Positions 11,601 to 61,695 of a DNA stretch of 64,000 bases are shown here, in pieces. Under the pieces are notes generated by a model. That model ran no database searches, was not told the origin of the DNA, and saw only the letters and a program-made list of their open reading frames with translations. Origin of the DNA: Candidatus Magasanikbacteria bacterium RIFCSPHIGHO2_01_FULL_33_34 (GTDB lineage Bacteria; Patescibacteriota; Patescibacteriia; Magasanikbacterales; UBA922). Numbering within the stretch: position 1 is the first letter of the stretch; each line of letters begins with the position of its first letter. Position numbers and translations under genes: made by a program. Location: positions 9,012-73,011 of the forward strand of contig MFPS01000008.1 in the NCBI GenBank assembly GCA_001782825.1. Direction: 5' to 3'.

Positions 11601-11606
11601 GTTTAG
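8604..11606 (+). CDS. leuS: leucyl-tRNA synthetase with inserted alpha/beta serine-hydrolase domain
   Basis: HIGH (HVGH), KMSKR, CP1 editing domain (TTRPDT, AVPAHDERDWEFA), WGAPIPMV and LPVKLPDDV motifs; ~190-codon in-frame insertion (9964-10545) with FIHGYGG / AHSLGG / FDSNCPVIP / NGPHF hydrolase motifs; 1000 aa versus ~800-860 typical. Confidence 0.95.
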   Translation: MQEYNPNKIESKWQKEWEKNGLYKTPEDVIIENKMYILPQLPYPSGSGLHVGHAEVYSACDIYARYQRMQKKKVLQVIGWDSFGLPAENYAIKNNVHPKISTDKAIDNFRSQIKSLGISVDWDREVGAHNPDYYKWTQWFFLLMYRRGLAYRKKQSVNWCDSCKTVLANEQVVEGHCERCDTEVVQRKMDQWFLKITDYADRLAKDLDKVDWPAETKRRQRQWIGRSDGAEVDFKIKDFDYKISVFTTRPDTLFGATYLVLAPEGLIVQELRGQVENWLEVEKYIDETKKKTELNRQTQKEKTGVELKGIKAINPVNGKEMPIWIADYVLSTYGTGSIMAVPAHDERDWEFAKKFGLEIKVVVIPVIDSRPDELLNEKINFYTNETLQHGSYSKEGLSVNSNFLDGLKSEEAKEKMIAWLEEYNVGKRKVQFKLRDWSVSRQRFWGAPIPMVFNETRKNKKYEYIFIHGYGGDSESNYFPKLKKDLEAIGHTVIAFDLPNTEKPNICEQMQFLLENISISENTVILAHSLGGAVAMKMLEHENKKVAKVIFSDCFFEPKFADVARPVVESSCDWNFDFEKLKTLSEEFVVVFDSNCPVIPREHSEKFAKNLDARIVFARANGPHFMSIHEPIILEESLVNGLKPVKFDDLPVKLPDDVDFKPTGQSPLTYSKDFQKGIEDKYGLGWEREVDTLDTFMCSSWFYYRYLDPKNDDEFASSIALKKWMPVDFYLGGEEHVNGHLLYSRFFTKVLFDAGYIDFDEPFMMHRHQGMILGEDSKKMSKRWSNVINPSDVVDEFGADTFRVYEMFMGPLEQTKPWNTDGVRGARRFLDRVWNLYKKVNSTENLEVEYDSILHKTIKKVGDDLATFRFNTAIAKMMELTNEFVKSDKIRHTDFELFLKILSPFAPHMTEELWSDMGNKKSISLEVWPQYDENKVMDSKIIVVAQVNGKVRASFEVDVDISESDIKKIVLEDAVVKKWLAGKEPKKVIYVKGKLVSVVV

Positions 11607-25530: not shown

Positions 25531-25712
25531 TATAATAGCTAGGGTTACATCTTAAACTATCATTGCACAGGTTTCAATTATTTATTTTTACTCCCTGCCT
25601 GCCGGCAGGCAGGATTCTCGCTTTGGCTCCGAGGGTGATGCCTGTTGTGGCATCAAATCCGTAAAAACAAATAATTGAAACCAATGTTTAATTATAAATA
25701 TCGCTTTTAATT
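25531..25712. repeat. structured palindromic intergenic repeat, copy a
   Basis: 17-nt inverted repeat CAATTATTTATTTTTAC...GTAAAAACAAATAATTG enclosing perfect 20-bp palindrome CCTGCCTGCCGGCAGGCAGG and hairpin GATGCCtgttgtGGCATC; near-identical copies at ~38395-38575 and ~49075-49262. Confidence 0.8.
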
Positions 25713-27779
25713 TTTTTCATCTAATGCATTTAATCTGCGTATTTCAAGTGTTTTTGCTTGTGTTGCGCGTATATAAGTTTCGTTTTCTTGATTTGTTTTG
25801 CATTGTTCTGTCCAGAGTTGGTCTAATAATCCCGCATTTTCATTGATTATTTCAATTTCTCCTTCACGAACACCATGATTGTATTTGCCATCTTTATTCC
25901 AGGCAAATGAGTGGACATATGAGATTTTTTTGATAGATAAGTTGTTGGTTGAATCAGGTGTATTGTATTCACAATTGGTTTTGGTGATTACAATGATATG
26001 ATCACGGTCTTGTTTTATGCCAGCATTTATCATTACTATAAAATCACCAGGTTTAATATTTTTTTTGAGTATAGAGTGACTATTTTCATCTTGTGCAAAA
26101 GTTAAAACATTTACATTTTGTACAATTCTTAATTTGGCTATTAATTTTCTAAAAATATTTTTTATTGTAGGGAATTTGATTACAGATTGTAAGGATTTAT
26201 TAGTCTTTGCTTTTAATTCCGCATTCAATATATAGTAGGCAAGACCAGAGCAATCAATACCTATATTATTGTCTACTAACAATTGTTTGGTTTGTTCCTG
26301 ATTGAATTTGTCTAAGTTTATTTTATTTTTTTGGGCGATGATAGAGATTTCTTCTATAATTTCTTTTGGATTACCTTTGCCAGTAAAAACTTTCAAGCCA
26401 CCGCGTATTTTTTGACGCGCATTATTAAAATAAGGTACAGAAATAAAATTATTTTTGATTGGTAAGTTCAAATAAGCATCAATTACTTTTTGGGCTTCAT
26501 TACTTAAAAAAGCAATATTTGGACAAATTATGTGTAGAATTTTTTTGCCAATATCACTTAGTCTATTGTGATCTGTCATGACTGATTGGTTGCTTTGTAT
26601 TCTCAATAGTTCTGTACCAATATTTTTATTATTGTAACCAATAACATCTAGATTATTTTTCTTTAAATCATTTATTATTTTTGTAATCTGTGGTGACCAA
26701 TCATTGTTGTGAATAATTCGTTTTATAATTTGTGAACCATTGGATATTGGTATTAATTTTTCTGTTGATGTATCTATATTGAGTAATCCTGCTAGATGAG
26801 CTTCAAAAATATTTATGCCATCATACTTAACTTTATTTTGTAGGATTGATTCAAAAGTAGTTGAAGCTGGCTGGCGAGCATTGACTTCTATCAAATACAT
26901 TTTTTTGGTTTTTTGGTCCATTATAATATCTACCCCAAATAGTCCTTTCCAGCCAAGCTCTTTTAATTTTTCAGATACTGATCTGACTATATTTTTAAAA
27001 TTTTCAATATCTACTTGAGTAAGTAATTTGTTTACTAATCCCCAGTCATTACCAATAGTTGAAAATGGCTTGTCAGTAAAATATTTAATACCAGTTATTT
27101 GATAACTAATGTTCCCGATTATTAAATCATTACCACTTAATGCATTATTATTTGTAAATATTGGACCTTCTACAAAATCTGAAATTCTAGCTTCTCTTTC
27201 TGGAAATTGTTTTTTAATTGTATCTAATTTTTCTTGACTATCAATCAAAACAGTGCCACTGCCAGTATGTGAATAATTGAATTGTAAGATAAATTTTTCT
27301 TTATTCCATTTTATATCTTTGCATTTTTCTATTTTGTAATTTAAAAAAAATTCGTTCAATGATTTGAAAATTTCAACTTGTGAAATTTTTTCTTCAATTT
27401 TATTTGATATTTTAGATGGTGGATTTAGTAGATTCCATTTATTTTCTTCACATATTTTTTCAATTTGTGCTGTATTTTTAAAAACCAAGATTGATGGATT
27501 TGTAAATTTTTTAATAAATTCTTTTGTGTCAGTATGCTTTAAAAGTTCTGCGGTACTTAATATTTCTTTTTCTTTTATTAAAAGAATATTTTTTTTGTTG
27601 ACGCTTGATTGTTTGGCAAAATCATTATTGTTTGAGATAATAAAATAACCCTCTGTGTCAGGATCAATGCTCATAGCCCTTTCAATATCACGAGTTACAT
27701 AAATTATCGGGTTTGATTTGAGTTTGTCAGTTAGGCTTTTCATAAATGTGATTATACTGTAAAATGTATGTGATTGCAA
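25707..27779 (-). CDS. ATP-grasp ligase fused to C-terminal NlpC/P60 (CHAP-like) cysteine peptidase domain
   Basis: ATP-grasp core (SHTGSGTV..., GLFGVDIIMDQKTKKMYLIEVNARQ); C-terminal GIDCSGLAYYIL ... KPGDFIVM ... DHIIVI ... YVHSF matching NlpC/P60 Cys-His-His arrangement; 690 aa. Confidence 0.65.
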   Translation of the reverse strand: MQSHTFYSIITFMKSLTDKLKSNPIIYVTRDIERAMSIDPDTEGYFIISNNNDFAKQSSVNKKNILLIKEKEILSTAELLKHTDTKEFIKKFTNPSILVFKNTAQIEKICEENKWNLLNPPSKISNKIEEKISQVEIFKSLNEFFLNYKIEKCKDIKWNKEKFILQFNYSHTGSGTVLIDSQEKLDTIKKQFPEREARISDFVEGPIFTNNNALSGNDLIIGNISYQITGIKYFTDKPFSTIGNDWGLVNKLLTQVDIENFKNIVRSVSEKLKELGWKGLFGVDIIMDQKTKKMYLIEVNARQPASTTFESILQNKVKYDGINIFEAHLAGLLNIDTSTEKLIPISNGSQIIKRIIHNNDWSPQITKIINDLKKNNLDVIGYNNKNIGTELLRIQSNQSVMTDHNRLSDIGKKILHIICPNIAFLSNEAQKVIDAYLNLPIKNNFISVPYFNNARQKIRGGLKVFTGKGNPKEIIEEISIIAQKNKINLDKFNQEQTKQLLVDNNIGIDCSGLAYYILNAELKAKTNKSLQSVIKFPTIKNIFRKLIAKLRIVQNVNVLTFAQDENSHSILKKNIKPGDFIVMINAGIKQDRDHIIVITKTNCEYNTPDSTNNLSIKKISYVHSFAWNKDGKYNHGVREGEIEIINENAGLLDQLWTEQCKTNQENETYIRATQAKTLEIRRLNALDEKN

Positions 27780-29586: not shown

Positions 29587-32340
29587 ATGTCATTTTTAAC
29601 TAAATTGCTAATAGGAGATCCGAATGCTAAAGTATTGAAATCATTACAAACCAATGTAGACAAAATTAATAGTTTGGAGTCAGAATATGAGAAGTTATCT
29701 GATGATAAATTAAAATCCAAAACATTGGAGTTTAAAAAACGTCTTGAGGCGGGTGAGACATTGGATGATATTCTGGTGGAGGCATTTGCAACTGTTCGTG
29801 AAGTTTCCAAGCGGACCACAGGTATGCGTCATTATGATGTACAGCTGGTGGGTGGAATGGTGCTTCATTCTGGAAAAATTGCTGAAATGAGAACTGGTGA
29901 AGGTAAAACTTTGGTGGCAACTTTGCCAATATATTTGAATGCACTAGCAGGGAAAGGTGTTCATTTGATTACAGTCAATGATTATTTGGCCAAACGTGAT
30001 GCTGTTTGGATGAGTCAAATTTATGATTTTTTGGGTTTGTCTGTGGGGATTATTCAAAATCAAAGAGTGAGCTATATTTATGATAGTTCAATTTTGGGTA
30101 ATAATATTGAGGGAAGTGATATTGATCAAGAAAGAGATGAAAGTGGAAGTTACAAAGTTGAGGAAGTATTTTTGCGTCCATCAAGTCGGCAAGAAGCGTA
30201 TAGGTGTGATATCACTTATGGTACCAATAATGAGTTTGGTTTTGATTATCTTCGTGACAATATGGTACAAAAACTTGATGAAATGGTAATGCGACCTGGT
30301 AGTGAGATGACTTATGCAATCATTGATGAAGTTGATTCTATTTTGATTGATGAGGCGCGTACGCCATTGATTATTTCAGCGCCAGCAGAAAAAGCAGCTG
30401 ATCAATATTATCAATTTGCCAAGCTAGTTCGTAATTTGAAAGAAAACGAAGACTATAATATTGATGAAAAATTGCGGGCAGCGACCTTGACCGAAGAAGG
30501 TGTAAATAAATTTGAGAGTTGGCTTGGAGTAGAAAATATTTATGTTGAAAGTGGAATGCGCACAATTCATCATATTGAGCAGTCTCTCAAAGCAGAAGTT
30601 TTGTTTAAACGAGATAAGGAGTATGTGGTTGAAGGAAATAATATAGTGATTATTGATGAATTTACTGGACGCAAGATGCCTGGTCGTCGTTATTCTGAAG
30701 GATTGCATCAAGCAATTGAAGCCAAAGAAGGAGTTGAAATTCAAAGAGAAAGTCAGACTTTGGCGACTGTAACTTTTCAGAATTTATTCCGTATGTATGG
30801 CAAATTGTCTGGAATGACTGGTACAGCTATTACTGAGGCTGAGGAATTTGGTAGTATATACAATCTAGAAGTAGTCACGATCCCAACCAATAGGACAGAT
30901 GTTAGAATTGATAGACCAGATAGAATATACAAGAATGAAAAAGGCAAAAATAAGGCTGTTCTTGAAAAAATAAAAGAATGTCAAGCTAAAAATCAGCCAA
31001 TTTTGGTTGGTACGATTTCGGTGGAAAAAAATGAAGAGTTGTCAGCTTATTTGGATTTGCAGGGTATTAAATATGAAGCTTTGAATGCCAAAAATCATGA
31101 ACGCGAAGGTGAAATAGTTGCTCAAGCCGGTCGTCCTGGGGCTGTGACATTGGCTACCAATATGGCTGGTCGTGGAGTAGATATTAAACTTGGTGGTGCA
31201 GAAATGGATGAAACGATGGCAAAACAGGTGAGAGAGGCGGGTGGTTTATTTGTATTGGGTACTGAGCGTCATGAGTCTCGTCGGATTGATAATCAGCTCC
31301 GTGGTCGATCAGCTCGTCAGGGAGATCCAGGAGAGACTCAATTTTTTGTGTCCACCGATGATGATTTGATGCGAATTTTTGCCGGTGATAGGCTTAAAGC
31401 TGTTATGACCAAGCTCAATGTGCCGGATGATATGCCAATTGAGCAAAAGATGATTACCAAAATGATAGAGACTGCTCAAAAGAAAGTGGAAGGTCATAAT
31501 TTTGATATTCGTAAACATCTTTTGGAATATGATGATGTATTAAACAAGCAGAGAACTATAATTTATAAAAAAAGAAAAGAAATATTAGAATCGGCTAATG
31601 AAAAAGATAGAAAAAAAATAAAAGAATTGGTATTAACTTTGATTGAACAAGAGATTGAGTTTATTGTTTCATATCACACAAATTTTGATGATAAAAAAGA
31701 ATGGAATGTTCAAGAAATTTATGAGACAGCCAAAACTATTTTTAATTTTACAGACAAGGAAAAAGAAGAATTGTTGAGAATGAATAAATTTAATGATAAT
31801 AAATTGGATGAAATCAAAACCCGAGAGATGATGGTAAAATTTTTGTTGGATAAATCAAATATTGAATATGAAAATTTGGAGAATAGCATCATGCAATCAG
31901 TTGGAGATGAAAATAATAATAAAGATGAAGTGATGAAGGATATTGAAAAAAGTATATTGCTTCGGGCAATTGATACACTTTGGGTGGAGCATCTTGTGTC
32001 TATTGATCATTTGCGTACAGGTATTGGTTTGCGTGGTTATGGTCAACGTGATCCATTGATTGAGTACAAAAAAGAAACTTATGATATGTTCAATGAGTTG
32101 CAGTCTGCAATTCAAAAAGAAGTAGTATATTCATTTTTCAAAATTGGCGCTGGTCTCCAATTAGCGCCGACTATTATGGCATCAGACAAAATGACTTTGC
32201 AAGGTGCCAAGAAAAGTTCAACAGTAAATTTAAATTCTGGTTCTAGTAAGCCACGAGATGGTGAAGGAAAAAAAGTTGGTAGAAATGATATGTGTCCTTG
32301 TGGTAGTGGAAAGAAGTATAAGAAGTGTCATGGAGTGTAA
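29587..32340 (+). CDS. secA: preprotein translocase ATPase SecA
   Basis: DEAD-like motor motifs (MRTGEGKTLVAT, DEVDSILIDEARTPLIIS), C-terminal zinc finger CPCGSGKKYKKCHG; 917 aa. Confidence 0.95.
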   Translation: MSFLTKLLIGDPNAKVLKSLQTNVDKINSLESEYEKLSDDKLKSKTLEFKKRLEAGETLDDILVEAFATVREVSKRTTGMRHYDVQLVGGMVLHSGKIAEMRTGEGKTLVATLPIYLNALAGKGVHLITVNDYLAKRDAVWMSQIYDFLGLSVGIIQNQRVSYIYDSSILGNNIEGSDIDQERDESGSYKVEEVFLRPSSRQEAYRCDITYGTNNEFGFDYLRDNMVQKLDEMVMRPGSEMTYAIIDEVDSILIDEARTPLIISAPAEKAADQYYQFAKLVRNLKENEDYNIDEKLRAATLTEEGVNKFESWLGVENIYVESGMRTIHHIEQSLKAEVLFKRDKEYVVEGNNIVIIDEFTGRKMPGRRYSEGLHQAIEAKEGVEIQRESQTLATVTFQNLFRMYGKLSGMTGTAITEAEEFGSIYNLEVVTIPTNRTDVRIDRPDRIYKNEKGKNKAVLEKIKECQAKNQPILVGTISVEKNEELSAYLDLQGIKYEALNAKNHEREGEIVAQAGRPGAVTLATNMAGRGVDIKLGGAEMDETMAKQVREAGGLFVLGTERHESRRIDNQLRGRSARQGDPGETQFFVSTDDDLMRIFAGDRLKAVMTKLNVPDDMPIEQKMITKMIETAQKKVEGHNFDIRKHLLEYDDVLNKQRTIIYKKRKEILESANEKDRKKIKELVLTLIEQEIEFIVSYHTNFDDKKEWNVQEIYETAKTIFNFTDKEKEELLRMNKFNDNKLDEIKTREMMVKFLLDKSNIEYENLENSIMQSVGDENNNKDEVMKDIEKSILLRAIDTLWVEHLVSIDHLRTGIGLRGYGQRDPLIEYKKETYDMFNELQSAIQKEVVYSFFKIGAGLQLAPTIMASDKMTLQGAKKSSTVNLNSGSSKPRDGEGKKVGRNDMCPCGSGKKYKKCHGV

Positions 32341-32341
32341 T

Positions 32342-32866
32342 ATGCAAATAATAGTTGGTTCTCAAAACAAAGCTAAGTTAGATGCGGTTTCAGAAATAAT
32401 CAAGGATTATCCGAATTTAAAAGATTTTTCAGTTTTTGGTGTGGAAGTTGAATCTGGTGTATCTGATCAACCAAAAAGTTTAGAAGAAACTGTGCAGGGT
32501 GCAATGAATCGCGCTAAAGATTCGTTTAAGGATTGTGATTATAGTTTTGGTTTGGAGTCTGGTTTGATGTCAGTCCCAAATACAAAAACTGGTTTTATGG
32601 ATGTATGTGTCTGTGCAATTTTTGATGGGAGTGATTATCATCTCGGTCTTTCGTCAGCTTGGGAGGCGCCTAAGAAAGTTATAGATTATATGCTTGAAGA
32701 AGGTTTGAATATGACTGAAGCAAGTGTAAAAGCTGGTTTAACAGGTAACTCAAATATTGGTTCTGCAGAAGGTTTGGTTGGAATTATGACAAAAGGCAGA
32801 TTAAATAGAAAAGAATATACAAAAGAAGCTATAAGAACAGCTCTTATACATTTAGAAAATATTTAA
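32342..32866 (+). CDS. non-canonical purine NTP phosphatase, YjjX-like (inosine/xanthosine triphosphatase family)
   Basis: VESGVSDQPKSLEETVQGAMNRAKDS parallels YjjX [23 protein letters not shown]; start ATG immediately after secA stop (alternative ATG at 32330 overlapping). Confidence 0.65.
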   Translation: MQIIVGSQNKAKLDAVSEIIKDYPNLKDFSVFGVEVESGVSDQPKSLEETVQGAMNRAKDSFKDCDYSFGLESGLMSVPNTKTGFMDVCVCAIFDGSDYHLGLSSAWEAPKKVIDYMLEEGLNMTEASVKAGLTGNSNIGSAEGLVGIMTKGRLNRKEYTKEAIRTALIHLENI

Positions 32867-33004: not shown

Positions 33005-35050
33005 ATGGCATTAAAAACAAATGTTAAACAAAATATTCGTAATAAAATTAGATGGGGTGTAGTTGGGATTTTTGCATTAATTGTGGTAGCAGTGTCTTAT
33101 GATGCGCCAACTTTTTTTAATAATAAAATCAATTGGATAAATAGCGTTACATCAATCGGTATACCAAATATTCCTGAAAGTTCTTTTGCGCTTGGTCTAG
33201 ATTTGCAAGGTGGTGCCCATCTGATATATCAGGCTGATGTAGCTGGTATTTCAGAAGATGGAAAAGGGGATGCAGTTGAAGGTGTACGTGACGTAATTGA
33301 GCGTCGTGTAAATGGTTTGGGTGTTGGTGAACCAAATATTCAAACTACCAAAGTTGGAGAAGATTATAGAATTATAGTTGAGTTACCGGGTGTGACTGAT
33401 GTAAATGAAGCTATTAGTATGATTGGTGAAACTCCGATATTAGAATTCAAAGAATTGAATCAGGAACCAGAACGTGGATTGACCGAAGAAGAACAAAAAG
33501 AAATTGATGATTATAATGCTGATGCAGAATCCAGAGCATTGTCTGTGGTTGAAAAGTTAAATAATGGTCTTGATTTTTCAGATGCAGCCAAAGAATTTTC
33601 AGAACATGAAGTTAGTAAGAATAATGGTGGATATATTGGGTTTGTGAATGAATATGGTTATTATGCGCCAATCTATAATTGGTTATCTGGCGCTGGTGAA
33701 GGGGAGATATCAAAAGGTTTAATAGAGTCATTGGATAGTTTTAATATCTTGAAAAGAGGCTCTAGTAGGGATGGTGAAGTGAGGGCTAAGGCGAGTCATA
33801 TTTTGATTTGTTATCTTGGTTCATCACAATGTAATGAACCAATTTATACAAAAGAAGAAGCCAAAGCTAAGGCTCAAGAATTGTTTGATCAGGCCAATGC
33901 AGAAAATTTTGGTATTTTGGCTAAAGAAAATTCAGCAGACCCTGGTTCTCGTGAAAATAATGGTGATTTAGGATTTTTTGCAAAATCTGATATGGTAAAA
34001 GAATTTGCTGATGCTGTATTTAGTGCAGAGGTGGGTCAAATTATAGGACCAGTTGAGACAGAATTTGGTTATCATGTTATATACAAAACAGATGAAACAA
34101 TTCCTGTAGAATATGAATTTTCTGCAATCGTTATAAACAAAAAAACTGCTCAGGATGTTTTGCCTGTGCAAGATCAGTTTGTGTATACTGGTTTGACTGG
34201 TGCACAATTGGAAAGGACAGAAGTGGTAAGTGATTCACAGACAAGTGAAATGCAGGTATCTTTGCAGTTTGATTCTGATGGAAAAAATTTGTTTAAAGAA
34301 ATTACTACTAGAAATGTTGGTCAACCTGTAGCAATATTCCTTGATGGCGAAATTATCAGTGCGCCAACTGTACAACAACCAATAGTTGATGGTCAGGCAG
34401 TAATAACTGGTAATTTTGATTTGGCAGAAGCAAGATTATTAAGCCAAAGATTGAATGCGGGTGCATTACCAGTACCAATTGATCTTATTTCACAACAAAG
34501 TGTTGGTGCAAGTCTTGGGGCTGAATCATTGATGAAGAGCTTGAAAGCCGGAGTTATTGCGCTTGTATTGGTGATGATATTTATGATTTTGTATTATAGA
34601 TTACCAGGATTATTGTCAGTGATCGCTTTAGTATTATATTTAGCAGTCACATTAGCAGTATTTAAATTGATTGGTGTTACGCTTACTTTGGCGGGTATTG
34701 CTGGTTTGGTATTATCAATTGGTATGGCAGTTGATGCCAATGTGCTAATTTTTGAACGCTTAAAAGAAGAATTGAAAGATGGTAAAAGTTTGAAGGCATC
34801 TGTAGAAGAAGGATTTCTTCGTGCTTGGCCATCAATTCGTGATGGAAATGTTTCAACTTTGATCACTTGTGCATTATTGATTTGGTTTGGATCTAGCTTT
34901 GTTCAAGGATTTGCGATTACACTTGCACTTGGTATATTGATGAGTATGTTTTCTGCGATTACTGTTACTCGCATATTACTTAGATTTGTAATACCTTGGT
35001 TTGAAAATAAAGGAAAGTGGTTATTTACAGGAGCAAATAATGATAATTAA
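33005..35050 (+). CDS. secD: protein-export membrane protein SecD with two parvulin (PpiC-type PPIase) domains inserted in the periplasmic head
   Basis: SecD P1 motifs (LGLDLQGGAHLIY...) and C-terminal TM bundle; inserted ~235 aa contain ASHILI...NGDLGFF...FGYHVIYK (parvulin signature) and a second parvulin-like repeat (LDFSDAAKEFSE...NGGYIGFV); 681 aa. Confidence 0.9.
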   Translation: MALKTNVKQNIRNKIRWGVVGIFALIVVAVSYDAPTFFNNKINWINSVTSIGIPNIPESSFALGLDLQGGAHLIYQADVAGISEDGKGDAVEGVRDVIERRVNGLGVGEPNIQTTKVGEDYRIIVELPGVTDVNEAISMIGETPILEFKELNQEPERGLTEEEQKEIDDYNADAESRALSVVEKLNNGLDFSDAAKEFSEHEVSKNNGGYIGFVNEYGYYAPIYNWLSGAGEGEISKGLIESLDSFNILKRGSSRDGEVRAKASHILICYLGSSQCNEPIYTKEEAKAKAQELFDQANAENFGILAKENSADPGSRENNGDLGFFAKSDMVKEFADAVFSAEVGQIIGPVETEFGYHVIYKTDETIPVEYEFSAIVINKKTAQDVLPVQDQFVYTGLTGAQLERTEVVSDSQTSEMQVSLQFDSDGKNLFKEITTRNVGQPVAIFLDGEIISAPTVQQPIVDGQAVITGNFDLAEARLLSQRLNAGALPVPIDLISQQSVGASLGAESLMKSLKAGVIALVLVMIFMILYYRLPGLLSVIALVLYLAVTLAVFKLIGVTLTLAGIAGLVLSIGMAVDANVLIFERLKEELKDGKSLKASVEEGFLRAWPSIRDGNVSTLITCALLIWFGSSFVQGFAITLALGILMSMFSAITVTRILLRFVIPWFENKGKWLFTGANNDN

Positions 35051-35053
35051 TAT

Positions 35054-36094
35054 ATGGAAATTATAAAAAATAGAAAAATTCCGTTTACTATTTCTGGTAT
35101 TTTGTTTGTTGTCAGTGTTATAGCTTTATTTTTATTTGGATTAAAGCCCGGCATAGATTTTACTGGTGGTGCTTTGATGGAAGTCAGGTTTGGAAATGAA
35201 CGACCAGAAATATCAGAAGTGCAATTAGCCTTGTCTGAAATGAATCTGGGCGAAGTTTTGATACAACCAACTGGTGAAGATAATATGATATTGAAAATGA
35301 GATTTGTGTCAGAAGAAGAGCATCAAGCAATTTTGGGTGTATTGAGAGAAAAATTTCAAAATAGTACAGAAGAAATAATTGATGAAGATATTATTTCAGA
35401 AGACACAGTTGAGGATGTTGTTGGGGGTGATACAAATAAAGAGGAAATTAATTTTGAATTACCAACGATAGAGACAGAAGAAGTTATTGACAAACCTATT
35501 ATTCAAGTGCCAGATGTATTGGAAGAAAGATTTGAAACTATAGGTGCGGCAATCAGTTCTCATTTAAGAGAAAGATCTATGTATGCTGCTGTGGCTGTTG
35601 TGTTAGCAATAATTTTGTATATTGGTTATACTTTTAGAAAGGTTTCTAAACCAGTACAATCATGGAAATATGGTGTTACAGCTATTATTGCTCTTTTTCA
35701 TGATGTAATTATTACAATGGCAGTATTTGCAGTATTAGGACATTATGCTGGAGTAGAAGTTGGGATATCATTTGTGGTAGCATTATTAACTATTATGGGT
35801 TATTCGGTCAATGATACTATTGTGGTATTTGATCGTATTCGTGAAAATTTGATAAAACGTGGAAGTGATCAATTTGATGAAACAGTCAATATGGGTGTTA
35901 AACAATCAATTACTCGTTCACTTAATACTTCCTTGACTACTTTACTTGTATTGGTTGCTTTATTTGTATTTGGTGGTGAATCTATACATTATTTTTCGTT
36001 AACATTAATTGTAGGAATAGTCGTTGGAACTTATTCATCAATATTTTTGGCTAGTCCGTTATTAGTTGAATGGGCAAATTATAAGAAAAGATAA
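35054..36094 (+). CDS. secF: protein-export membrane protein SecF
   Basis: 346 aa; SecF TM-bundle motifs (HDVIITMAVFA, FDRIRENL). Confidence 0.9.
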   Translation: MEIIKNRKIPFTISGILFVVSVIALFLFGLKPGIDFTGGALMEVRFGNERPEISEVQLALSEMNLGEVLIQPTGEDNMILKMRFVSEEEHQAILGVLREKFQNSTEEIIDEDIISEDTVEDVVGGDTNKEEINFELPTIETEEVIDKPIIQVPDVLEERFETIGAAISSHLRERSMYAAVAVVLAIILYIGYTFRKVSKPVQSWKYGVTAIIALFHDVIITMAVFAVLGHYAGVEVGISFVVALLTIMGYSVNDTIVVFDRIRENLIKRGSDQFDETVNMGVKQSITRSLNTSLTTLLVLVALFVFGGESIHYFSLTLIVGIVVGTYSSIFLASPLLVEWANYKKR

Positions 36095-36368: not shown

Positions 36369-37829
36369 ATGGAAATTGGTCCTATAAATATTGATTTGTC
36401 ATACGCACAGACTTTTTTTCAAGGAAAAGGGACTTTTGAGGTTGTAATGTTGGTAATTGCATGGTTTGGTTGGATAGTTATTGTATATTTTTTACTTTTT
36501 ATTATGTTATTCCTATGGAAGGAATACAAAGAAGAACAGTACAAGAAGGATTGGAAATGGGTACTTTTGGCGATAGATATTCCACCAGAAAATATGCAAA
36601 CCCCAAAAGCTGTTGAACAAATGTTTTCTCATTTGGCTGGGGCACATGATAGTCCGAATATTGCTGATAAATTTAGAACTGGTTATAAACAGCGTTGGTT
36701 TAGCTTTGAAATTATTAGTATGGAGGGGTATATTCAGTTTTTGGTGCGAACTGAGGAAATGTTTAGAGATTTGGTAGAAGCAGCAGTTTATGCGCAATAC
36801 CCAGGAGCTGAAATTTTTGAGGTTGAAGATTATGTTGATCAAGTACCAGACAAATTTCCTTCAGATGAATATGATATGTGGTCAGCAGATTTTGGTTTAG
36901 CAGAAAATTTTGCTTTTCCGATTAGAACATATGAAGAATTTGAACATAAGCTTTTTAAAGATGAGATGTTGAAGGATCCAATGGGAACATTTTTGGAAAG
37001 TTTTAGTCGGATCGGAGCTGGAGAACAGGTTTGGTTTCAGATTTTATTGGAACCAATAGATAATAGTTGGAAAGAAAAAGTAATAAAAAAGATTAAAGAA
37101 TTGGTAGGTGATATGGCAAGTATGACTAGTAGTAATAGTAAAAAAGGCGGAGGCTTTACTAGTCTTATCACAGATGAACCCAAAAAAGCTATGGCAGAAC
37201 TTAGTGCTCAATTATTTGGTTCTGGTACTTCTGATGCGGATGGTAAGGTTGTAAAAGATACTAACAAAACTCCAAAATTGACTCCGGGACAATCAAAAAT
37301 ATTAGAAGCAATGGAGAAAAAAATAACTAAAATTGGATTTAAAACTAAAATGAGATTAGTATATGTTGCGCGAAAGGAAGTATTTAAACCAGAAAGAGCT
37401 GTTAATGCAATTATTGGGGCTATTGGTCTATATAATGTTCCGAGTTCTAATTCGATTGTGGCGACTTCATCTATTAGTACCAATTATTTTCTCAAAGAAT
37501 CAAGGAACCAAACTAAAAAAATTAAAGCAATGAGTGCATATAAGAAAAGAAAAATGAAAGTTGGTGGCAATTCTTTTGTGTTTAATATAGAGGAGTTGGC
37601 TACTATTTGGCATTTTCCATTATCTTATGTAAAGACTCCAAATGTGCAAAAGACACAAGGTAAAAGAGCTGAACCACCATCTGGCCTTCCGGTTGAAAAT
37701 ATTCCAATTGTTGCCAAGATTCCAGTAGATGAGAGTGATAATAAGACAGTCAAAAAAGGGCAAAATAAAACTATTATTACTGATGCAGGGGATGTGGCTT
37801 ATTTTAGTTCTGATGAAGAGTATGGTTAA
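36369..37829 (+). CDS. hypothetical membrane-anchored protein (N-terminal TM, large soluble domain)
   Basis: 486-aa ORF with AT-rich native codon usage; no recognised motif. Confidence 0.6.
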   Translation: MEIGPINIDLSYAQTFFQGKGTFEVVMLVIAWFGWIVIVYFLLFIMLFLWKEYKEEQYKKDWKWVLLAIDIPPENMQTPKAVEQMFSHLAGAHDSPNIADKFRTGYKQRWFSFEIISMEGYIQFLVRTEEMFRDLVEAAVYAQYPGAEIFEVEDYVDQVPDKFPSDEYDMWSADFGLAENFAFPIRTYEEFEHKLFKDEMLKDPMGTFLESFSRIGAGEQVWFQILLEPIDNSWKEKVIKKIKELVGDMASMTSSNSKKGGGFTSLITDEPKKAMAELSAQLFGSGTSDADGKVVKDTNKTPKLTPGQSKILEAMEKKITKIGFKTKMRLVYVARKEVFKPERAVNAIIGAIGLYNVPSSNSIVATSSISTNYFLKESRNQTKKIKAMSAYKKRKMKVGGNSFVFNIEELATIWHFPLSYVKTPNVQKTQGKRAEPPSGLPVENIPIVAKIPVDESDNKTVKKGQNKTIITDAGDVAYFSSDEEYG

Positions 37830-38584: not shown

Positions 38585-40951
38585 TTATATTATATTTTTA
38601 AGGAATTTTAAACCCATATATAGACCAAGTCCAATGGCTCCAGAACCGGTAACTGCTATGACTTTTTCTATTATATTACGAGAGATTGGATTGGCTTGAT
38701 TTATTATATCATCCTCCAAATATTTTAATTCAGATATTTCAGTGGTTTCTCCTATTGGTTCTATGGTTTCATTTGGTTTATTATTAACCAAGTTTAACAT
38801 AGTATTGGTATCAGTAACAAGTGTAATATTATTTTCTTTTGTTATTTCTTGTGTTGTCGAAGTTATTATCGTTTCTTTGGTTGTATTTTGAACAGTATCA
38901 ATTTTGGTTATTGGTAAATTTTTTTCAATATTTTCTTCAATTAATTCTACAAAAATAGTTGATGTGACAAGCACTTCGGTTGATGTAACAAAAAGAGATT
39001 CAGTTGTGGTGTTAAAGTCTGTACCAATTATATTGCTGTATGAGTTTGAACTACTACTATTGGTTATAGTTGTAGGTATCTGTTCATTTGCTGTAGCAGG
39101 CGTAAATAATGGCTGTATAGGCCAGCTATAACCTAGTAGGGCTGGAATTGCATGTTTTGTATTGAACCAATCAACACCATCTACCCAGTCAGATGTATAA
39201 TAGCCATTTTCTTGTAAATTATCAATATATACAGACCATGGATTTTTGTCACCGATTGTCCATTCTTCTTGACCTTCACCTAGAGAATTTAAGCCCATCA
39301 AAACCCAGCTAGTGGTCAAGGTATCAGAAGTCAGATAACCCCAGCCACCATCATTATTTTGTTCATTTTTTAAATATTGCTTGGCTTTTGTAAATACACT
39401 ATTATCAATTTGAATTCCTTTTTCTTTTGCATAGTTTAATATATTTATAACTGCGCCAGTTATGTCTGCTCCGGCATAACCATCCCATGTGAATGCTCCG
39501 TCTGTATTTTGATCTGCTAAAATATCATTTAGTATATCAGTAATAATGTTTTCATTGATATTATTTTCAGATGTAAGCAATGCAAACAAAGCAAATACAT
39601 CATCATTAATTCCAGGTAATCCAAAGTCAGTTTCAGAATAACATTCGGTTTTTAGCGTATTAATTAGATTTATCATTGATTGATTATTGGTAGAAATTCC
39701 AGACGTATATAATGACAAATAGTGTCTTGGGTATGAAGCACAAACATTTAAATCAGTGGCATCAGTATAATTATAGTTTTTAATGTAGTCAGACAAGGAA
39801 GTAGAACTGGCAATAATATTAGCTGGATTTTTTCCATTGGCTACTAATGCCATTACAGACCAATCAGAAATCCCAGCATCTATGATTTTTCCAGTTTTGT
39901 CTTGGTTTTTTATTAAGAATTCGGTTAATTTATTGGCTGTGTTTGTAATTTGATTAGGTGAAATTAAATTTGTATAAGGTGTATTATTATCTGAAGATCC
40001 ACTACTTGAAGATCCGTTTGATGAATTATTTTCAGTAGTAGTAGAAATGATCGGTAGATCAAGTACATTTATGGTTATAGCGTTACTCCATTTTGAAAAG
40101 TCTGCCGGGGATATTTTTGCATAGTATGTCCCAGTCGCCGAGAACATAAAATCAACTATGCCATTTGTATCAGATACAAGCGTTGTAGTAGTTAAGGTTG
40201 TATCCCACCATCCAGTTGGGTTGGGATTGGTAATTGATATATCTATTGTATCATTGGCATCAGTTGACCATTCACTACTAGTAGTAGAAAAGTTATATTT
40301 GAAAGTTTGGAAGGTTGTAGTGGTACCAATTGGAAAGGTAGAAGTGCTAGCGGTAATTGACCATGGGTTTCCAAAGTATACATAAACATTTTCACCTCCA
40401 AATAATTCATATTTGTCCATACCGATATTTGGATATTCACCGTCTACAGCATATTGCCAATTGTAACAAGCTTCAGTGCTTGAATTAACTTCAATACAAT
40501 TTATCAAAAAACTATTAAAAGATTCATAATATACTAAATTTGAAATATTGAATGAAGCATTGTTTTGATTTTCTGTAAGGAGTGTAGTCAAAACATTATG
40601 GTTTTGTGATGAAGTTGTAAATATTTCATTGGTATTTGAATCTGTATAATCAAATGTTGTACTTGATGATAATTCAACTTCGCCTTGAAATATAAAATTA
40701 TCTTGATATCGCAAATTAAAGTTAATTGAAATTGGTTCATAAATTTCTTCTGTGGTGGTTGGTGTTTCAATAATATCATCTGTAGAGGTTGAAACTTCTT
40801 GTTCGGTTGAGCTAGTAGTTTGTGGGGTACTTGTAGAAGTGTCGCTATCATCAATAGCCCCAAAAGCAGAATTAACTGGTATGGTTATTAGTATTGAGAT
40901 AAACAGTATATTTATAAACAGTATAGGTGTATTAAAGATTTGATTTTTCAT
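38585..40951 (-). CDS. large cell-surface protein with prenyltransferase/terpenoid-cyclase-like alpha/alpha-toroid repeats; signal peptide, Ser/Thr-rich linker, C-terminal TM anchor
   Basis: Repeats such as QNTDGAFTWDGYAGADITGAVINIL, NEQNNDGGWGYLTSDTLTTSWVLMGL, GKIIDAGISDWSVMALVANG resemble squalene-cyclase/prenyltransferase-type repeats; 788 aa. Confidence 0.6.
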   Translation of the reverse strand: MKNQIFNTPILFINILFISILITIPVNSAFGAIDDSDTSTSTPQTTSSTEQEVSTSTDDIIETPTTTEEIYEPISINFNLRYQDNFIFQGEVELSSSTTFDYTDSNTNEIFTTSSQNHNVLTTLLTENQNNASFNISNLVYYESFNSFLINCIEVNSSTEACYNWQYAVDGEYPNIGMDKYELFGGENVYVYFGNPWSITASTSTFPIGTTTTFQTFKYNFSTTSSEWSTDANDTIDISITNPNPTGWWDTTLTTTTLVSDTNGIVDFMFSATGTYYAKISPADFSKWSNAITINVLDLPIISTTTENNSSNGSSSSGSSDNNTPYTNLISPNQITNTANKLTEFLIKNQDKTGKIIDAGISDWSVMALVANGKNPANIIASSTSLSDYIKNYNYTDATDLNVCASYPRHYLSLYTSGISTNNQSMINLINTLKTECYSETDFGLPGINDDVFALFALLTSENNINENIITDILNDILADQNTDGAFTWDGYAGADITGAVINILNYAKEKGIQIDNSVFTKAKQYLKNEQNNDGGWGYLTSDTLTTSWVLMGLNSLGEGQEEWTIGDKNPWSVYIDNLQENGYYTSDWVDGVDWFNTKHAIPALLGYSWPIQPLFTPATANEQIPTTITNSSSSNSYSNIIGTDFNTTTESLFVTSTEVLVTSTIFVELIEENIEKNLPITKIDTVQNTTKETIITSTTQEITKENNITLVTDTNTMLNLVNNKPNETIEPIGETTEISELKYLEDDIINQANPISRNIIEKVIAVTGSGAIGLGLYMGLKFLKNII

Positions 40952-53566: not shown

Positions 53567-56233
53567 TTATGCTAAATCTATTATTCTTTTTATAGCCAAA
53601 GCAACATTGCCTGGTTCTAGAATTGTCATAACTGGCACATGGCTTGGCATTTGTAAAGTTGAGTGTATATTTACTAGCATATCCATTTTGTCTTTAAAGG
53701 GTGGGCAAGCAATTACAGGTTTGTTACTATTGCCAGCCATAAATCCTGATAAAGCATTTGATCGTCCAGCAATTGTAATGTATACAACTTTTTCATCTTG
53801 GTATTTCTCCAATAATTCTAATAGTTTTGTAGCTTCTTTGTGAGCTGATGCTACATGTTGAACGTATGTAATAGATTGTTCTGAAAGCGCTTGAGTTATC
53901 TTTTGAGCATGATCTTCATCTTTGGTTGAACCAAGTATGAGTACGGCTTTTATTTTTGTTGTGCCTGTTGGTTGGAGGTATTGTAATTTTTCTATTGGTT
54001 TTTCTTCATTTTTTACTTCTGTTTTTATTGCTGTATTTTCTACTAGTTTATCTTCAGGAAATTGAAATTTTTCTCCAGTAATCATTTCATACAATTTAAT
54101 ATACCGTTTTGATAGCTCAATGACAAGTTCTTCTGGTGCTTTTGGTAGTTCAGCATCATTGTATGGGTCACAATTATTTTTAAACCAGATCCTCAAAAAT
54201 TCTTTGTCTATATTTTCTGGTTCTTGTCCTTTTGCAAAACGTTCTGCATAACTTTCAGCAATCCAGTAACGACTAGAGTCTGGTGTATGTATTTCATCAA
54301 TCAATAATATATTTCCATCTTTGTCTTTGCCAAATTCGTATTTTGTATCAACTAATATAAGACCATGTTCAGCCGATATTTTTTGTCCAAAAGCAAAAAG
54401 TTCCAATGATTTTTTGGATACATAATCCCATTCTGCTTGTGTCATTAGTCCTTTTTCTACTATTTCTTTTGGTGTTATTGAACTGTCATGGTTATCGTCT
54501 TTGGTAGTGGGTGTAACTATTGGGGTAAAAAATTTTTGATTTTTTACTAATCCATCTGGTAATAAATTACCGCAAAAATTACGAACACCTTTTTCATAAT
54601 TAATCCAAGCAGAAGTGTCTGTGGTACCAGTAATATATCCACGTACAACAAATTCTACAGGGAAAACTGTACATTTTTTGGCGATAGTTACATTTGGTTT
54701 TGGAATCTGTAAAACATGATTTGGAATAATATGTGCGGTTTTTTTAAACCACCATGCACTTGTTTGGTTTAAAACTTGTCCTTTAAATGGAATGGCTGCT
54801 AATACTTTATCAAATGCACTCTGGCGGTCTGTGGTAATCAAAATCATTTTATCATCAAATTCATAACTATCTCTTACTTTTCCTATTCTTTTTTTACCAG
54901 CATTAAATGTGGTTTGTGTGATACATTTGTTTAATTGGTTTTTTATTTTGTCTGTATAATCCATATGTTTATTATAAATATAGCAATTTTGTGAGTATTG
55001 ATTGAATAGTATGTGAGTTTTTAAGATTTGTTGTAGTTGAGTATCAATACTATCATTTTCCACAGAGATTTTCCACAAAGTACCTTTATTTATATTTTTT
55101 ATACCTTTAATATTTAGTCTATGGTCTAGTGTTTCTTTCTTATATTCACCAATTATGTCGTCATTGTTATTAACCAATAAACAGATTTGTTTTGTACCAA
55201 TTGCATTAAAATTTTCAATTACATATTCTTTATTAGAATTATATAATTCTCCAGTTTCGGTAATTTGTTTATATATTTCATCTTTATTTATATTGTCATC
55301 AAAATTTATTTCCCAATGAGTATATCTTTCTATATTTGCGTTTATACCGGTTTGTCTAAGGGTATTTTGTACGGTGGATACAACATTATCAGTAATAATT
55401 AATTTTGTAATGATTTCTTTGCTGTTTTCTTTTGGTTTGTATTTATTTAATTTATATTGATTTGGGGTGTAGGTGAGTGGAGTAAGATTGATACTTTTTT
55501 CTTTTTCAATGTATTCTCTCATTGATGTAAAGATTGGTTGTCCCATAGGTGTTCTTTCAGGATGAGGCATCATTGCCATAATATTGCCATTTTTATTAAT
55601 GACTGCTGCTAGATTGTACACTGTACCGTTTGGGTTGGTGGGGAATTGAGATTCAGTTTTGCCTTCATTGTCGCAATATCTGAATATTGTCATATGATTA
55701 AGTTTCATTTCTTCTAACAGTCTTTCTGGTATTACAAATCTACCTTCCCCGTGAGCAATGGGTAGTCTTATAAAATCACCTTGTGCCATGTGTCTACTAA
55801 ATGCTGATCTTTTACTAGGTATATCTAGCTTAATATTCACCCAATTGTTATAGAAGCCCACTCCTACTATTCTTTCATTTTGTATTTGTTTGTTAGAATC
55901 AAGCGCCATACCAACCTCATTGTTTTTAAGTCCAGGTACTAATCCTGATTCTACTAAAATCTGAGCGCCATTACATACACCGAGCACTGGTTTGCCTTTT
56001 TTTGATTCGTCAGTAATAATTTTCATTATAGGATCAAGTGAGGCGATTATTCCTGCGCGTGATCTATCTTCGTATGAAAATCCGCCCACTATAAAATAGC
56101 CGTCATAATTTTTTAATTTTTGATAATCTTGATTCCACAAAAATTCTTCTGCATTCATTTGAGCATTGCGTACAGCGCGAATAGATTCAGATTCACAATT
56201 ATTTCCAGGGAATTGTATTATGGCTATTTTCAT
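53567..56233 (-). CDS. multifunctional purine enzyme: PurQ (FGAM synthase GATase) - PurS-like - PurC (SAICAR synthetase) - PurE (AIR carboxylase/mutase) fusion
   Basis: N-terminus MKIAIIQFPGNNCE...GVCNGAQIL (PurQ); middle PurS-like segment; GKVRDSY...LITTDRQSAFD and VRGYITG (PurC); C-terminus LILGSTKDEDHAQ...VASAHKEA...AGRSNALSGFMAGNSNKPVIACPP (PurE); 888 aa. Confidence 0.8.
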   Translation of the reverse strand: MKIAIIQFPGNNCESESIRAVRNAQMNAEEFLWNQDYQKLKNYDGYFIVGGFSYEDRSRAGIIASLDPIMKIITDESKKGKPVLGVCNGAQILVESGLVPGLKNNEVGMALDSNKQIQNERIVGVGFYNNWVNIKLDIPSKRSAFSRHMAQGDFIRLPIAHGEGRFVIPERLLEEMKLNHMTIFRYCDNEGKTESQFPTNPNGTVYNLAAVINKNGNIMAMMPHPERTPMGQPIFTSMREYIEKEKSINLTPLTYTPNQYKLNKYKPKENSKEIITKLIITDNVVSTVQNTLRQTGINANIERYTHWEINFDDNINKDEIYKQITETGELYNSNKEYVIENFNAIGTKQICLLVNNNDDIIGEYKKETLDHRLNIKGIKNINKGTLWKISVENDSIDTQLQQILKTHILFNQYSQNCYIYNKHMDYTDKIKNQLNKCITQTTFNAGKKRIGKVRDSYEFDDKMILITTDRQSAFDKVLAAIPFKGQVLNQTSAWWFKKTAHIIPNHVLQIPKPNVTIAKKCTVFPVEFVVRGYITGTTDTSAWINYEKGVRNFCGNLLPDGLVKNQKFFTPIVTPTTKDDNHDSSITPKEIVEKGLMTQAEWDYVSKKSLELFAFGQKISAEHGLILVDTKYEFGKDKDGNILLIDEIHTPDSSRYWIAESYAERFAKGQEPENIDKEFLRIWFKNNCDPYNDAELPKAPEELVIELSKRYIKLYEMITGEKFQFPEDKLVENTAIKTEVKNEEKPIEKLQYLQPTGTTKIKAVLILGSTKDEDHAQKITQALSEQSITYVQHVASAHKEATKLLELLEKYQDEKVVYITIAGRSNALSGFMAGNSNKPVIACPPFKDKMDMLVNIHSTLQMPSHVPVMTILEPGNVALAIKRIIDLA

Positions 56234-60361: not shown

Positions 60362-60390
60362 ATGTGGTGTTCTATCTTTATAGAGAAAAT

Positions 60391-61695
<1,305 letters not shown>

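Follow-up and report, generated by a model that had tools for sequence, protein, structure and literature searches.

Results

Parvulin domains within SecD

We analysed a stretch of 64,000 nucleotides (hereafter the window) from the genome of Candidatus Magasanikbacteria bacterium RIFCSPHIGHO2_01_FULL_33_34 (assembly GCA_001782825.1, contig MFPS01000008.1, positions 9,012 to 73,011 of the forward strand). Coordinates refer to the window, and features lie on the forward strand unless stated otherwise. The secD gene of this window (33005..35050) encodes a full, bona fide SecD protein of 681 amino acids (aa). Between its P1 base strand PILEFKE and its P1 head lies an insert of ~240 residues, aa 155-395, consisting of two parvulin folds. 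This SecD-parvulin architecture is real, old and widespread within the Candidate Phyla Radiation (CPR; also called Patescibacteria). Judging from sequence and predicted structure, the insert is probably a resident folding or holding station at the Sec exit.

The assignment to SecD follows from several matches. With 393.7 bits, in two stretches separated by the insert, the protein exceeds the cut-off (244.4) of the SecD equivalog model TIGR01129 (NCBIfam), and the best match of the open reading frame (ORF) in the PDB is the SecDF protein of Thermus thermophilus, 3aqp (phmmer, E=1e-75). The Pfam domains follow each other in the order SecD_1st (aa 92-152), two rotamase stretches, SecDF_P1_head (aa 396-490) and SecD_SecF_C (aa 493-660). 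All parts of the SecD layout are present, namely the first transmembrane segment (TM1), the P1 base and head, and five C-terminal transmembrane segments of the resistance-nodulation-division (RND) type, as seen with the Pfam families PF21760, PF22599 and PF02355, in the AlphaFold2 model and in Foldseek searches. TM1 (aa ~17-33, WGVVGIFALIVVAVSY, 33053..33103) is the hydrophobic part of a long N-terminal helix in the AlphaFold2 model, and its topology is assigned by homology with SecDF structures. The N-terminal part of the P1 base (aa 58-154, 33176..33466) matches PF21760 at aa 92-152 and residues 30-120 of 3aqp, and ends in the hinge strand PILEFKE (aa 144-150). The P1 head subdomain (aa 396-492, 34190..34480) matches PF22599 (E=6e-29, profile positions 20-114 of 114) and 3aqp from residue 158 on. 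TM2-TM6 (aa 493-665, 34481..34999) form the RND-type membrane domain (PF02355 at aa 493-660; AlphaFold2 helices at aa 503-666). The partner subunit is encoded by the adjacent secF gene (35054..36094, 346 aa; TIGR00966, 272.8 bits with a cut-off of 160; PF02355, E=5e-56), which starts 4 nucleotides past the secD stop codon.

The position of the insert was read from the alignment with T. thermophilus SecDF (phmmer against the PDB), where aa 58-154 correspond to residues 30-120, and aa 395-661 to residues 158-424. Since the alignment splits at residues ~120/~158, ~240 residues stand in for a connection of ~37 residues. In T. thermophilus residues 121-157 simply link the LEFR strand to the head, whereas here two parvulin folds occupy this place. 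An earlier reading, made from the sequence alone, had placed the insertion in the P1 head. The extracytoplasmic P1 domain is indeed the host, but the insert lies at the base-to-head junction, after the LEFKE strand and outside the head proper.

We also considered whether the insertion site is a general hot spot of SecD proteins, shared with the long P1 domain of Escherichia coli SecD. This was rejected, because the extra residues of the E. coli protein lie earlier, and the spacing from LEFR to the head is there ~35 residues, similar to Thermus.

The sequence-only reading had further proposed two parvulin-like repeats in the region 33455-34160 (aa 151-385 of SecD). They are borne out by hidden Markov models, by structure prediction and by hundreds of homologs. 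The rotamase profile scan over residues ~150-385, on which that proposal had been staked, gave strong matches, far beyond chance. In the scan of the whole protein both Rotamase_3 (E=6.2e-39, best stretch at aa 249-364) and Rotamase (E=1.4e-33) matched in two stretches. The two units are related to each other: profile-profile alignment with hhalign yielded a probability of 97.8% (E=4e-12). A simple local alignment of one repeat with the other was mis-registered and uninformative, and this comparison was used in its place.

Structure prediction led to the same result. The AlphaFold2 model of full-length SecD, built from a 44-sequence alignment, has a mean predicted local distance difference test score (pLDDT) of 77.8, and the insert is its best predicted part (~90). 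The model of the insert only (aa 140-400) has pLDDT 93.1 and a predicted template-modelling score (pTM) of 0.74, and consists of parvulin folds matching those of SurA, PrsA and Pin1. Foldseek comparison of the full model with the PDB placed SecDF structures on top, and also retrieved SurA and the peptidyl-prolyl isomerase (PPIase) domains of PrsA. The isolated Thermus P1 domain, 3aqo, was matched with a target-normalised template-modelling score (TM-score) of 0.73 in an alignment split by the insert. The best match of the insert-only model is SurA (E=1.5e-11, 27-31% identity), and the alignment covers both parvulin domains over 230-256 columns. No solved SecD or SecDF structure matched the parvulin part in the PDB searches. 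Among close homologs, mean pairwise identity is 0.47 in unit 1, 0.62 in unit 2, and ~0.74 in the base, head and transmembrane parts of SecD.

The second parvulin unit

Unit 2 (aa 259-366, 33779..34102) is a complete canonical parvulin of the PpiC type. The segment aa 258-384 scanned alone matches PF13616 (Rotamase_3) with 100.8 bits (E=9e-29, cut-off 22.5, profile positions 16-115 of 116) and PF00639 (Rotamase) with 81.9 bits. The full signature ascribed to this repeat on first reading was located in all its parts: ASHILI at aa 263-268, NGDLGFF at aa 319-325 and FGYHVIYK at aa 354-361. Unit 2 has the parvulin fold beta-alpha3-beta-alpha-beta2, as seen from the AlphaFold2 model (pLDDT 93), Foldseek and covariation. 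It superimposes on the PPIase domains of Staphylococcus aureus PrsA, Bacillus anthracis PrsA and Pin1 and on the second parvulin domain of SurA with target-normalised TM-scores of 0.81-0.86 and root-mean-square deviations (rmsd) of 2.1-3.0 A.

Unit 2 contains the dual-histidine motif and an aspartate at the position of Pin1 C113. These residues are His265 (33797-33799), Asp312 (33938-33940) and His357 (34073-34075), which we take, in agreement with the alignments, to be equivalent to the Pin1 and PrsA residues. All 44 close homologs keep both histidines, and they have Asp (36) or Glu (8) at position 312. In a broader set of 306 distinct sequences of the tandem type the histidine pair is retained in 299 (98%), and Asp or Glu at position 312 in 269 (88%). 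Judging from this pattern, unit 2 looks like a maintained, possibly active PPIase.

The loop between beta1 and alpha1 of unit 2 (HILICYLGSSQC) contains two cysteines, Cys269 and Cys276 (33809-33832), that are invariant in all 44 close homologs. Both positions are Cys in 200 of the 306 broader sequences; in the remainder Ala or Ser takes their place. The pair 269-276 also appears in the covariation analysis described below, with a score of 1.38. These residues may form an extracytoplasmic disulfide stapling the loop.

The first unit and the topology of the insert

Unit 1 (aa 155-256, 33467..33772) comprises only the elements alpha1-alpha4 and beta2-beta4 (PF00639, hhalign, AlphaFold2 pLDDT ~90 or higher). 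At the sequence level it is recognizably a parvulin: aa 153-257 scanned alone match PF00639 with 43 bits (E=9e-11, cut-off 21.7, profile positions 10-95 of 97), in agreement with the hhalign match to unit 2. However, it does not have the canonical order of strands, as there is no beta1 upstream of alpha1. The histidine of beta4, the counterpart of His357, is replaced by Asn247; this position is Asn in 138 of the 306 sequences and His in only 10. Position 374, which lies beyond unit 2, is Ala here, Arg in 151 and His in 9 of the 306. Histidines at both 247 and 374 occur in only four of the 306. Position 201 is His in this protein and Asp in most relatives. Thus unit 1 is a degenerate parvulin fold that has lost both histidines and, as the dual-histidine motif is missing, it is probably not an enzyme.

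The sequence-only reading had described the two repeats as a tandem. The two units stand, but they are probably nested, with unit 1 degenerate, permuted and completed by a strand that follows unit 2. This return strand (aa 368-380, VEYEFSAIVINKK, 34106..34144) has the family consensus xSRILxxTK and is the proposed strand beta1' of unit 1, as suggested by covariation and by relatives with a single parvulin.

Such relatives (P0132, P0141, P0143, P0155, P0136, P0137) carry one parvulin at the same site. Its elements follow in the order LEFKE strand, alpha1 through beta4 (FGYHII), a short turn, a histidine-bearing strand of the ASHILFKT type, and the head. We read this as a circularly permuted order. 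These proteins keep both histidines and the Asp. The histidines are 20-21 residues apart, with a turn NN, GEG or GAG midway, and thus would be cross-strand neighbours. In canonical parvulins the two histidines are cross-strand neighbours as well. With both histidines and the Asp retained, the single-parvulin SecD proteins may carry an active permuted parvulin. The return strand of the protein considered here has its positional homolog in the ASHILFKT strand behind the single parvulin of these relatives.

The pairing of strands in aa 120-420 was analysed by mean-field direct coupling analysis (DCA), for which the 306 tandem-type sequences had an effective number of ~255. As a control, the canonical contacts of unit 2, including beta1-beta2 and beta1-beta4, were recovered (266-306, 266-358, 260-365, 262-362, 262-321, 263-325), and so was the pairing of the SecD hinge strands, that is, of the base strand with the first strand of the head (144-402, 142-402, 154-393). 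The return strand covaries with beta2 of unit 1 (210-371, rank 10 of all pairs) and with beta4 of unit 1 (244-376, 247-374). The block means of the return strand are 0.135 with beta2 and 0.101 with beta4, the 99th percentile of the background being 0.105. The pair 374-247 comprises both "histidine" positions of unit 1, which covary as Asn/Arg or Leu/Glu; the triad Asp-His-His occurs in the four sequences with both histidines. The alternative pairings, LEFKE with strands of unit 1, beta4 of unit 1 with ASHILICY, and beta4 of unit 2 with the return strand, are all negative.

Two other assignments were rejected. Firstly, PILEFKE could be the beta1 strand of unit 1. Its block means are -0.096 with beta2 and -0.039 with beta4, and LEFKE pairs with the first head strand; the global mode of hhalign puts PILEFKE at this place with zero confidence. 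Secondly, the breaks seen by DSSP at aa 257-259 and 366-367 could be hairpin turns that assign ASHILICY to unit 1 and aa 368-378 to unit 2. This was discarded because Pin1 aligns with unit 2 over 113 of 114 columns with rmsd 2.1 A, and because the registers seen in covariation (620-621 and 624-625) agree instead with one kinked ribbon of two strands. These breaks are more plausibly kinks of a single long two-stranded ribbon joining both units.

Thus the absence of an own beta1, the permuted single-parvulin relatives and the DCA pairing lend moderate support to the prediction of a nested insert, in which unit 2 lies between beta4 and beta1' of a circularly permuted unit 1, rather than of a simple tandem. 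In the simplest reading, the chain would run from the SecD hinge through alpha1 to beta4 of unit 1, continue over a kink into beta1 of unit 2, return after unit 2 as beta1', and enter the head.

Distribution among relatives

All of the 120 best database matches (61-100% identity) have the same Pfam architecture, and those with names are SecD proteins of Candidatus Magasanikbacteria or Patescibacteria. Among cluster representatives (50% identity), ~90 of the best 150 have one or more parvulins between the P1 base and head. The insert takes several forms, confirmed with Pfam on examples: a nested pair of ~230-270 aa as in the protein described here, a single parvulin of ~130-190 aa, and larger inserts of ~350-400 aa. 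In P0166, P0178 and P0207 the inserts of 350-400 aa have an extra segment of ~170-200 aa ahead of the parvulin. The parvulin-bearing relatives include SecD-SecF fusions of 1015-1119 aa.

A search of GTDB species genomes retrieved 450 relatives. The best 80 all span the whole insert with 41-71% identity, and come from Magasanikbacteria, Falkowbacteria, Buchananbacteria, Uhrbacteria, Nomurabacteria, Paceibacter, and unclassified Parcubacteria or Patescibacteria. A search seeded from a distant SecDF-fused member found the architecture in 119 of 120 matches, in Candidatus Peregrinibacteria and Gracilibacteria. No named case outside CPR was seen, the searches not being designed for excluding one.

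These data also bear on the trivial explanation, that the protein results from chimeric assembly, or from adjacent secD and prsA-like genes having been mis-called as one fusion. The source is a genome of the metagenome type, and some database fragments are named as isomerases. However, secD is a single uninterrupted ORF, and the parvulins are not terminal but lie between two halves of one P1 domain. This layout is shared by hundreds of independent assemblies, contigs of 0.6-1.5 Mb among them, and in all of the 82 retrieved loci the ORF with the parvulin also bears the SecD head. An artefact is thus effectively excluded.

The fragments in question (e.g. P0279, P0187, P0280, P0282) appear in NCBI as "peptidylprolyl isomerase, partial", whereas the full-length copies are named just SecD. 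Labels of either kind could mislead surveys that ask whether CPR genomes have PrsA or PPIase.

Three stand-alone proteins with triple parvulins (P0226, P0239, P0244) were considered as possible CPR equivalents of PrsA. They were dropped, because they are Ala/Pro-rich proteins with signal peptides that seem unlike the proteins of low-GC CPR genomes, and they carry no information on the genome considered here. No further parvulin ORF was found within the window, and no extra parvulin in the ±3-kb flanks of the 82 related loci.

Comparison with known systems

Canonical SecDF proteins (T. thermophilus 3AQP and 5YHF; Deinococcus radiodurans 5XAN) have the membrane domain, P1 base and P1 head in common with this SecD, and presumably also the proton-powered swing of the head. 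The insert was compared with three families of parvulin chaperones.

The periplasmic chaperone SurA of E. coli (1M5Y) resembles the insert in its pair of consecutive parvulin domains. Of this pair only one is active; the first lacks PPIase activity. However, SurA is a soluble protein with N-terminal and C-terminal chaperone modules, whereas the CPR insert has neither module and is a covalent part of SecD. The parvulins of SurA are sequential and canonical, whereas here unit 1 is apparently permuted and unit 2 nested, and the relative orientation of the domains differs (rmsd ~17 A). The SurA equivalog model NF008038 gave 57.7 bits with a cut-off of 394, only the parvulin pair being aligned, and no SurA_N-like domain was found in the SecD protein by Pfam.

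PrsA (4WO7, 6VJ4, 2JZV) resembles the SecD module in being an extracytoplasmic, membrane-tethered parvulin that acts on Sec substrates in cells with no outer membrane. Unit 2 fits the PrsA PPIase domains with target-normalised TM-scores of 0.85-0.86 at 35-38% identity. However, PrsA has a lipobox, an NC dimerisation and chaperone domain and one parvulin, whereas the SecD module has two parvulins and neither lipobox nor NC domain. The PrsA equivalog models stayed below their cut-offs (NF002846, 73.9 against 361; NF002827, 68.2 against 343), with matches to the parvulin part alone.

PpiD is a membrane-anchored chaperone with one parvulin and a SurA-like chaperone module; as the PpiD-YfgM complex it sits on SecYEG of E. 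coli and aids translocation (PMC9643414). Unlike the CPR parvulins, which are within the SecD chain, it is a separate protein with its own transmembrane anchor and binds SecYEG non-covalently. The PpiD equivalog NF008054 (the PRK10788 model) gave 58.2 bits with a cut-off of 493. Since only the parvulin parts match the models of these three families, the protein is to be filed as SecD with embedded parvulin domains, and not as PrsA, SurA or PpiD.

Parvulins have been placed next to the Sec machinery before. AlphaFold models position both parvulin domains of SurA on the SecDF P1 head, and electron microscopy (EM) locates SurA on the holotranslocon (PMC9987972). In Mycoplasma pneumoniae, SecYEG-SecDF is covered by a dome of PrsA-like lipoproteins that carry PPIC domains, and only one of these domains keeps the catalytic residues (bioRxiv 10.1101/2025.04.25.650208). 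As in CPR bacteria, the host is genome-reduced and wall-less or monoderm. In M. pneumoniae, PrsA-like proteins with PPIC domains are an obligate part of the Sec machinery. However, the dome consists of three separate large lipoproteins (Mdp436/444/489) that enclose a non-covalent chamber, whereas the CPR PPIC domains are within the SecD polypeptide.

Possible function

In SecDF, the proton-motive force (PMF) is thought to swing the P1 head, to which the emerging polypeptide binds and which helps to pull it from SecYEG (PMC9987972; Thermus and Deinococcus structures). The insert emerges at the paired hinge strands, adjoining this head. It seems fairly probable to us that the insert serves as a PrsA-, SurA- or PpiD-like foldase or holdase station residing at the Sec exit. 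In such a scheme, SecD P1 would have acquired a two-domain parvulin module at the junction of the base and the mobile head. A secretory chain leaving SecYEG would be captured by the swinging head and then bound by the adjacent parvulin module. Unit 2 would act on the nascent chain as a prolyl isomerase or holdase, and unit 1 would be a scaffold or an extra binding surface. The result would be a folding station always present at the translocon exit, one copy per SecD, in monoderm bacteria with small genomes.

Several observations weigh against this scheme. The full-length AlphaFold2 model has pTM 0.39, and the placement of the module relative to the head, the base and SecYEG is unreliable. The insert has no N- or C-terminal chaperone domain such as those of PrsA or SurA. 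The nested topology is read from mean-field DCA with only ~255 effective sequences. The first parvulin of SurA keeps both histidines in the alignment, though it is inactive, and thus a retained histidine pair is no proof of PPIase activity. Finally, PrsA has been annotated in members of all CPR classes (Chiriac et al., PMC9166423); these annotations could be the parvulin-bearing SecD itself.

The case of SurA also favours another possibility, that the module is an enlarged, non-catalytic binding or holdase surface that helps SecDF to grip and pull the chain, similar to the inactive parvulins of PpiD and the first one of SurA. Unit 1 lacks both histidines, and the insert adjoins the polypeptide-binding P1 head, described as substrate-binding (PMC9987972). 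However, the active-site positions of unit 2 (98% for the histidines and 88% for Asp or Glu in the 306 sequences) are conserved more tightly than the unit overall, with its 62% identity. This fits selection on an active site, although the dual-histidine motif may also be structural. We regard a purely non-catalytic module as somewhat unlikely.

A role apart from folding of clients, such as anchoring to or spacing from the wall or S-layer, regulation of the head swing, or assembly of pili or structures for host attachment, seems to us very improbable. CPR envelopes are unusual, and an insert emerging at the hinge strands (144-402, 154-393) could change the mechanics of the hinge. A protein with an S-layer homology (SLH) domain adjoins one homolog, which is a weak indication. 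On the other hand, nothing specific speaks for such roles, and the single, double and larger inserts in many lineages all keep the parvulin. To our knowledge, the parvulin domains of extracytoplasmic proteins serve as folding factors or chaperones.

The station proposed here for the Sec exit may be taken one step further. The parvulin module could be mechanically coupled to the proton-driven swing of P1, forming a PMF-cycled foldase that replaces stand-alone PrsA, and unit 1, with unit 2 nested inside, might be the first parvulin known to be circularly permuted. This extension is speculative and we consider it doubtful; if true, the CPR SecDF would be an energy-coupled machine for both translocation and folding.

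How proteins emerging from SecYEG are handed over to extracytoplasmic chaperones is an open question. The evidence for coupling of SecDF and chaperones has so far been indirect: low-resolution EM and AlphaFold models with SurA placed at the P1 head, crosslinks of PpiD/YfgM and the Mycoplasma dome. The conserved covalent fusion provides "Rosetta-stone" support for a real and ancient partnership of SecDF and parvulins, being a covalent version of the non-covalent precedents. It provides a model system, on a single polypeptide, in which the partnership of chaperone and translocon can be studied structurally and biochemically, and adds a lineage-specific trait to the cell biology of CPR bacteria. 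If the nested and permuted topology is true, it would be an unusual example of evolution of the parvulin fold.

No paper on a SecD-parvulin fusion, on a parvulin of Patescibacteria or on a circularly permuted parvulin came up in full-text searches, whose coverage leaves out many subscription papers. The precomputed Pfam annotation in domain databases already lists SecD and parvulin domains on these proteins.

Other features of the window

The secD gene is preceded by secA (29587..32340, 917 aa), identified from its SecA-like translation with the C-terminal motif CPCGSGKKYKKCHG. Between them lies a gene of the DUF84/NTPase_I-T family (32258-32866, Pfam E=3e-39). The longest ORF of this gene shares 83 nucleotides with the 3' end of secA, and therefore its true start is probably the ATG at 32339. 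Directly downstream of secF is a 486-aa ORF (36369-37829) whose N-terminal segment is hydrophobic. It has no Pfam match, and neither do two ORFs on the reverse strand, of 788 aa (38585-40951) and 690 aa (25707-27779).

The leucyl-tRNA synthetase (8604-11606, 1000 aa) contains a hydrolase domain at aa 465-622 (Abhydrolase_1, E=8e-11; Ser_hydrolase, E=2e-8), an unusual insertion between the editing and the anticodon-binding domains. On the reverse strand, an 888-aa ORF (53567-56233) fuses a PurQ-like GATase_5 domain, SAICAR synthetase (PurC) and AIR carboxylase (PurE). Near this purine-biosynthesis fusion is a PurL-like gene (58031-60448). No Rfam family, tRNA included, reached its gathering score in the 64-kb window. 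The GC content of the window is ~27-44%, and the GC skew is positive across most of the first 48 kb and then near zero.

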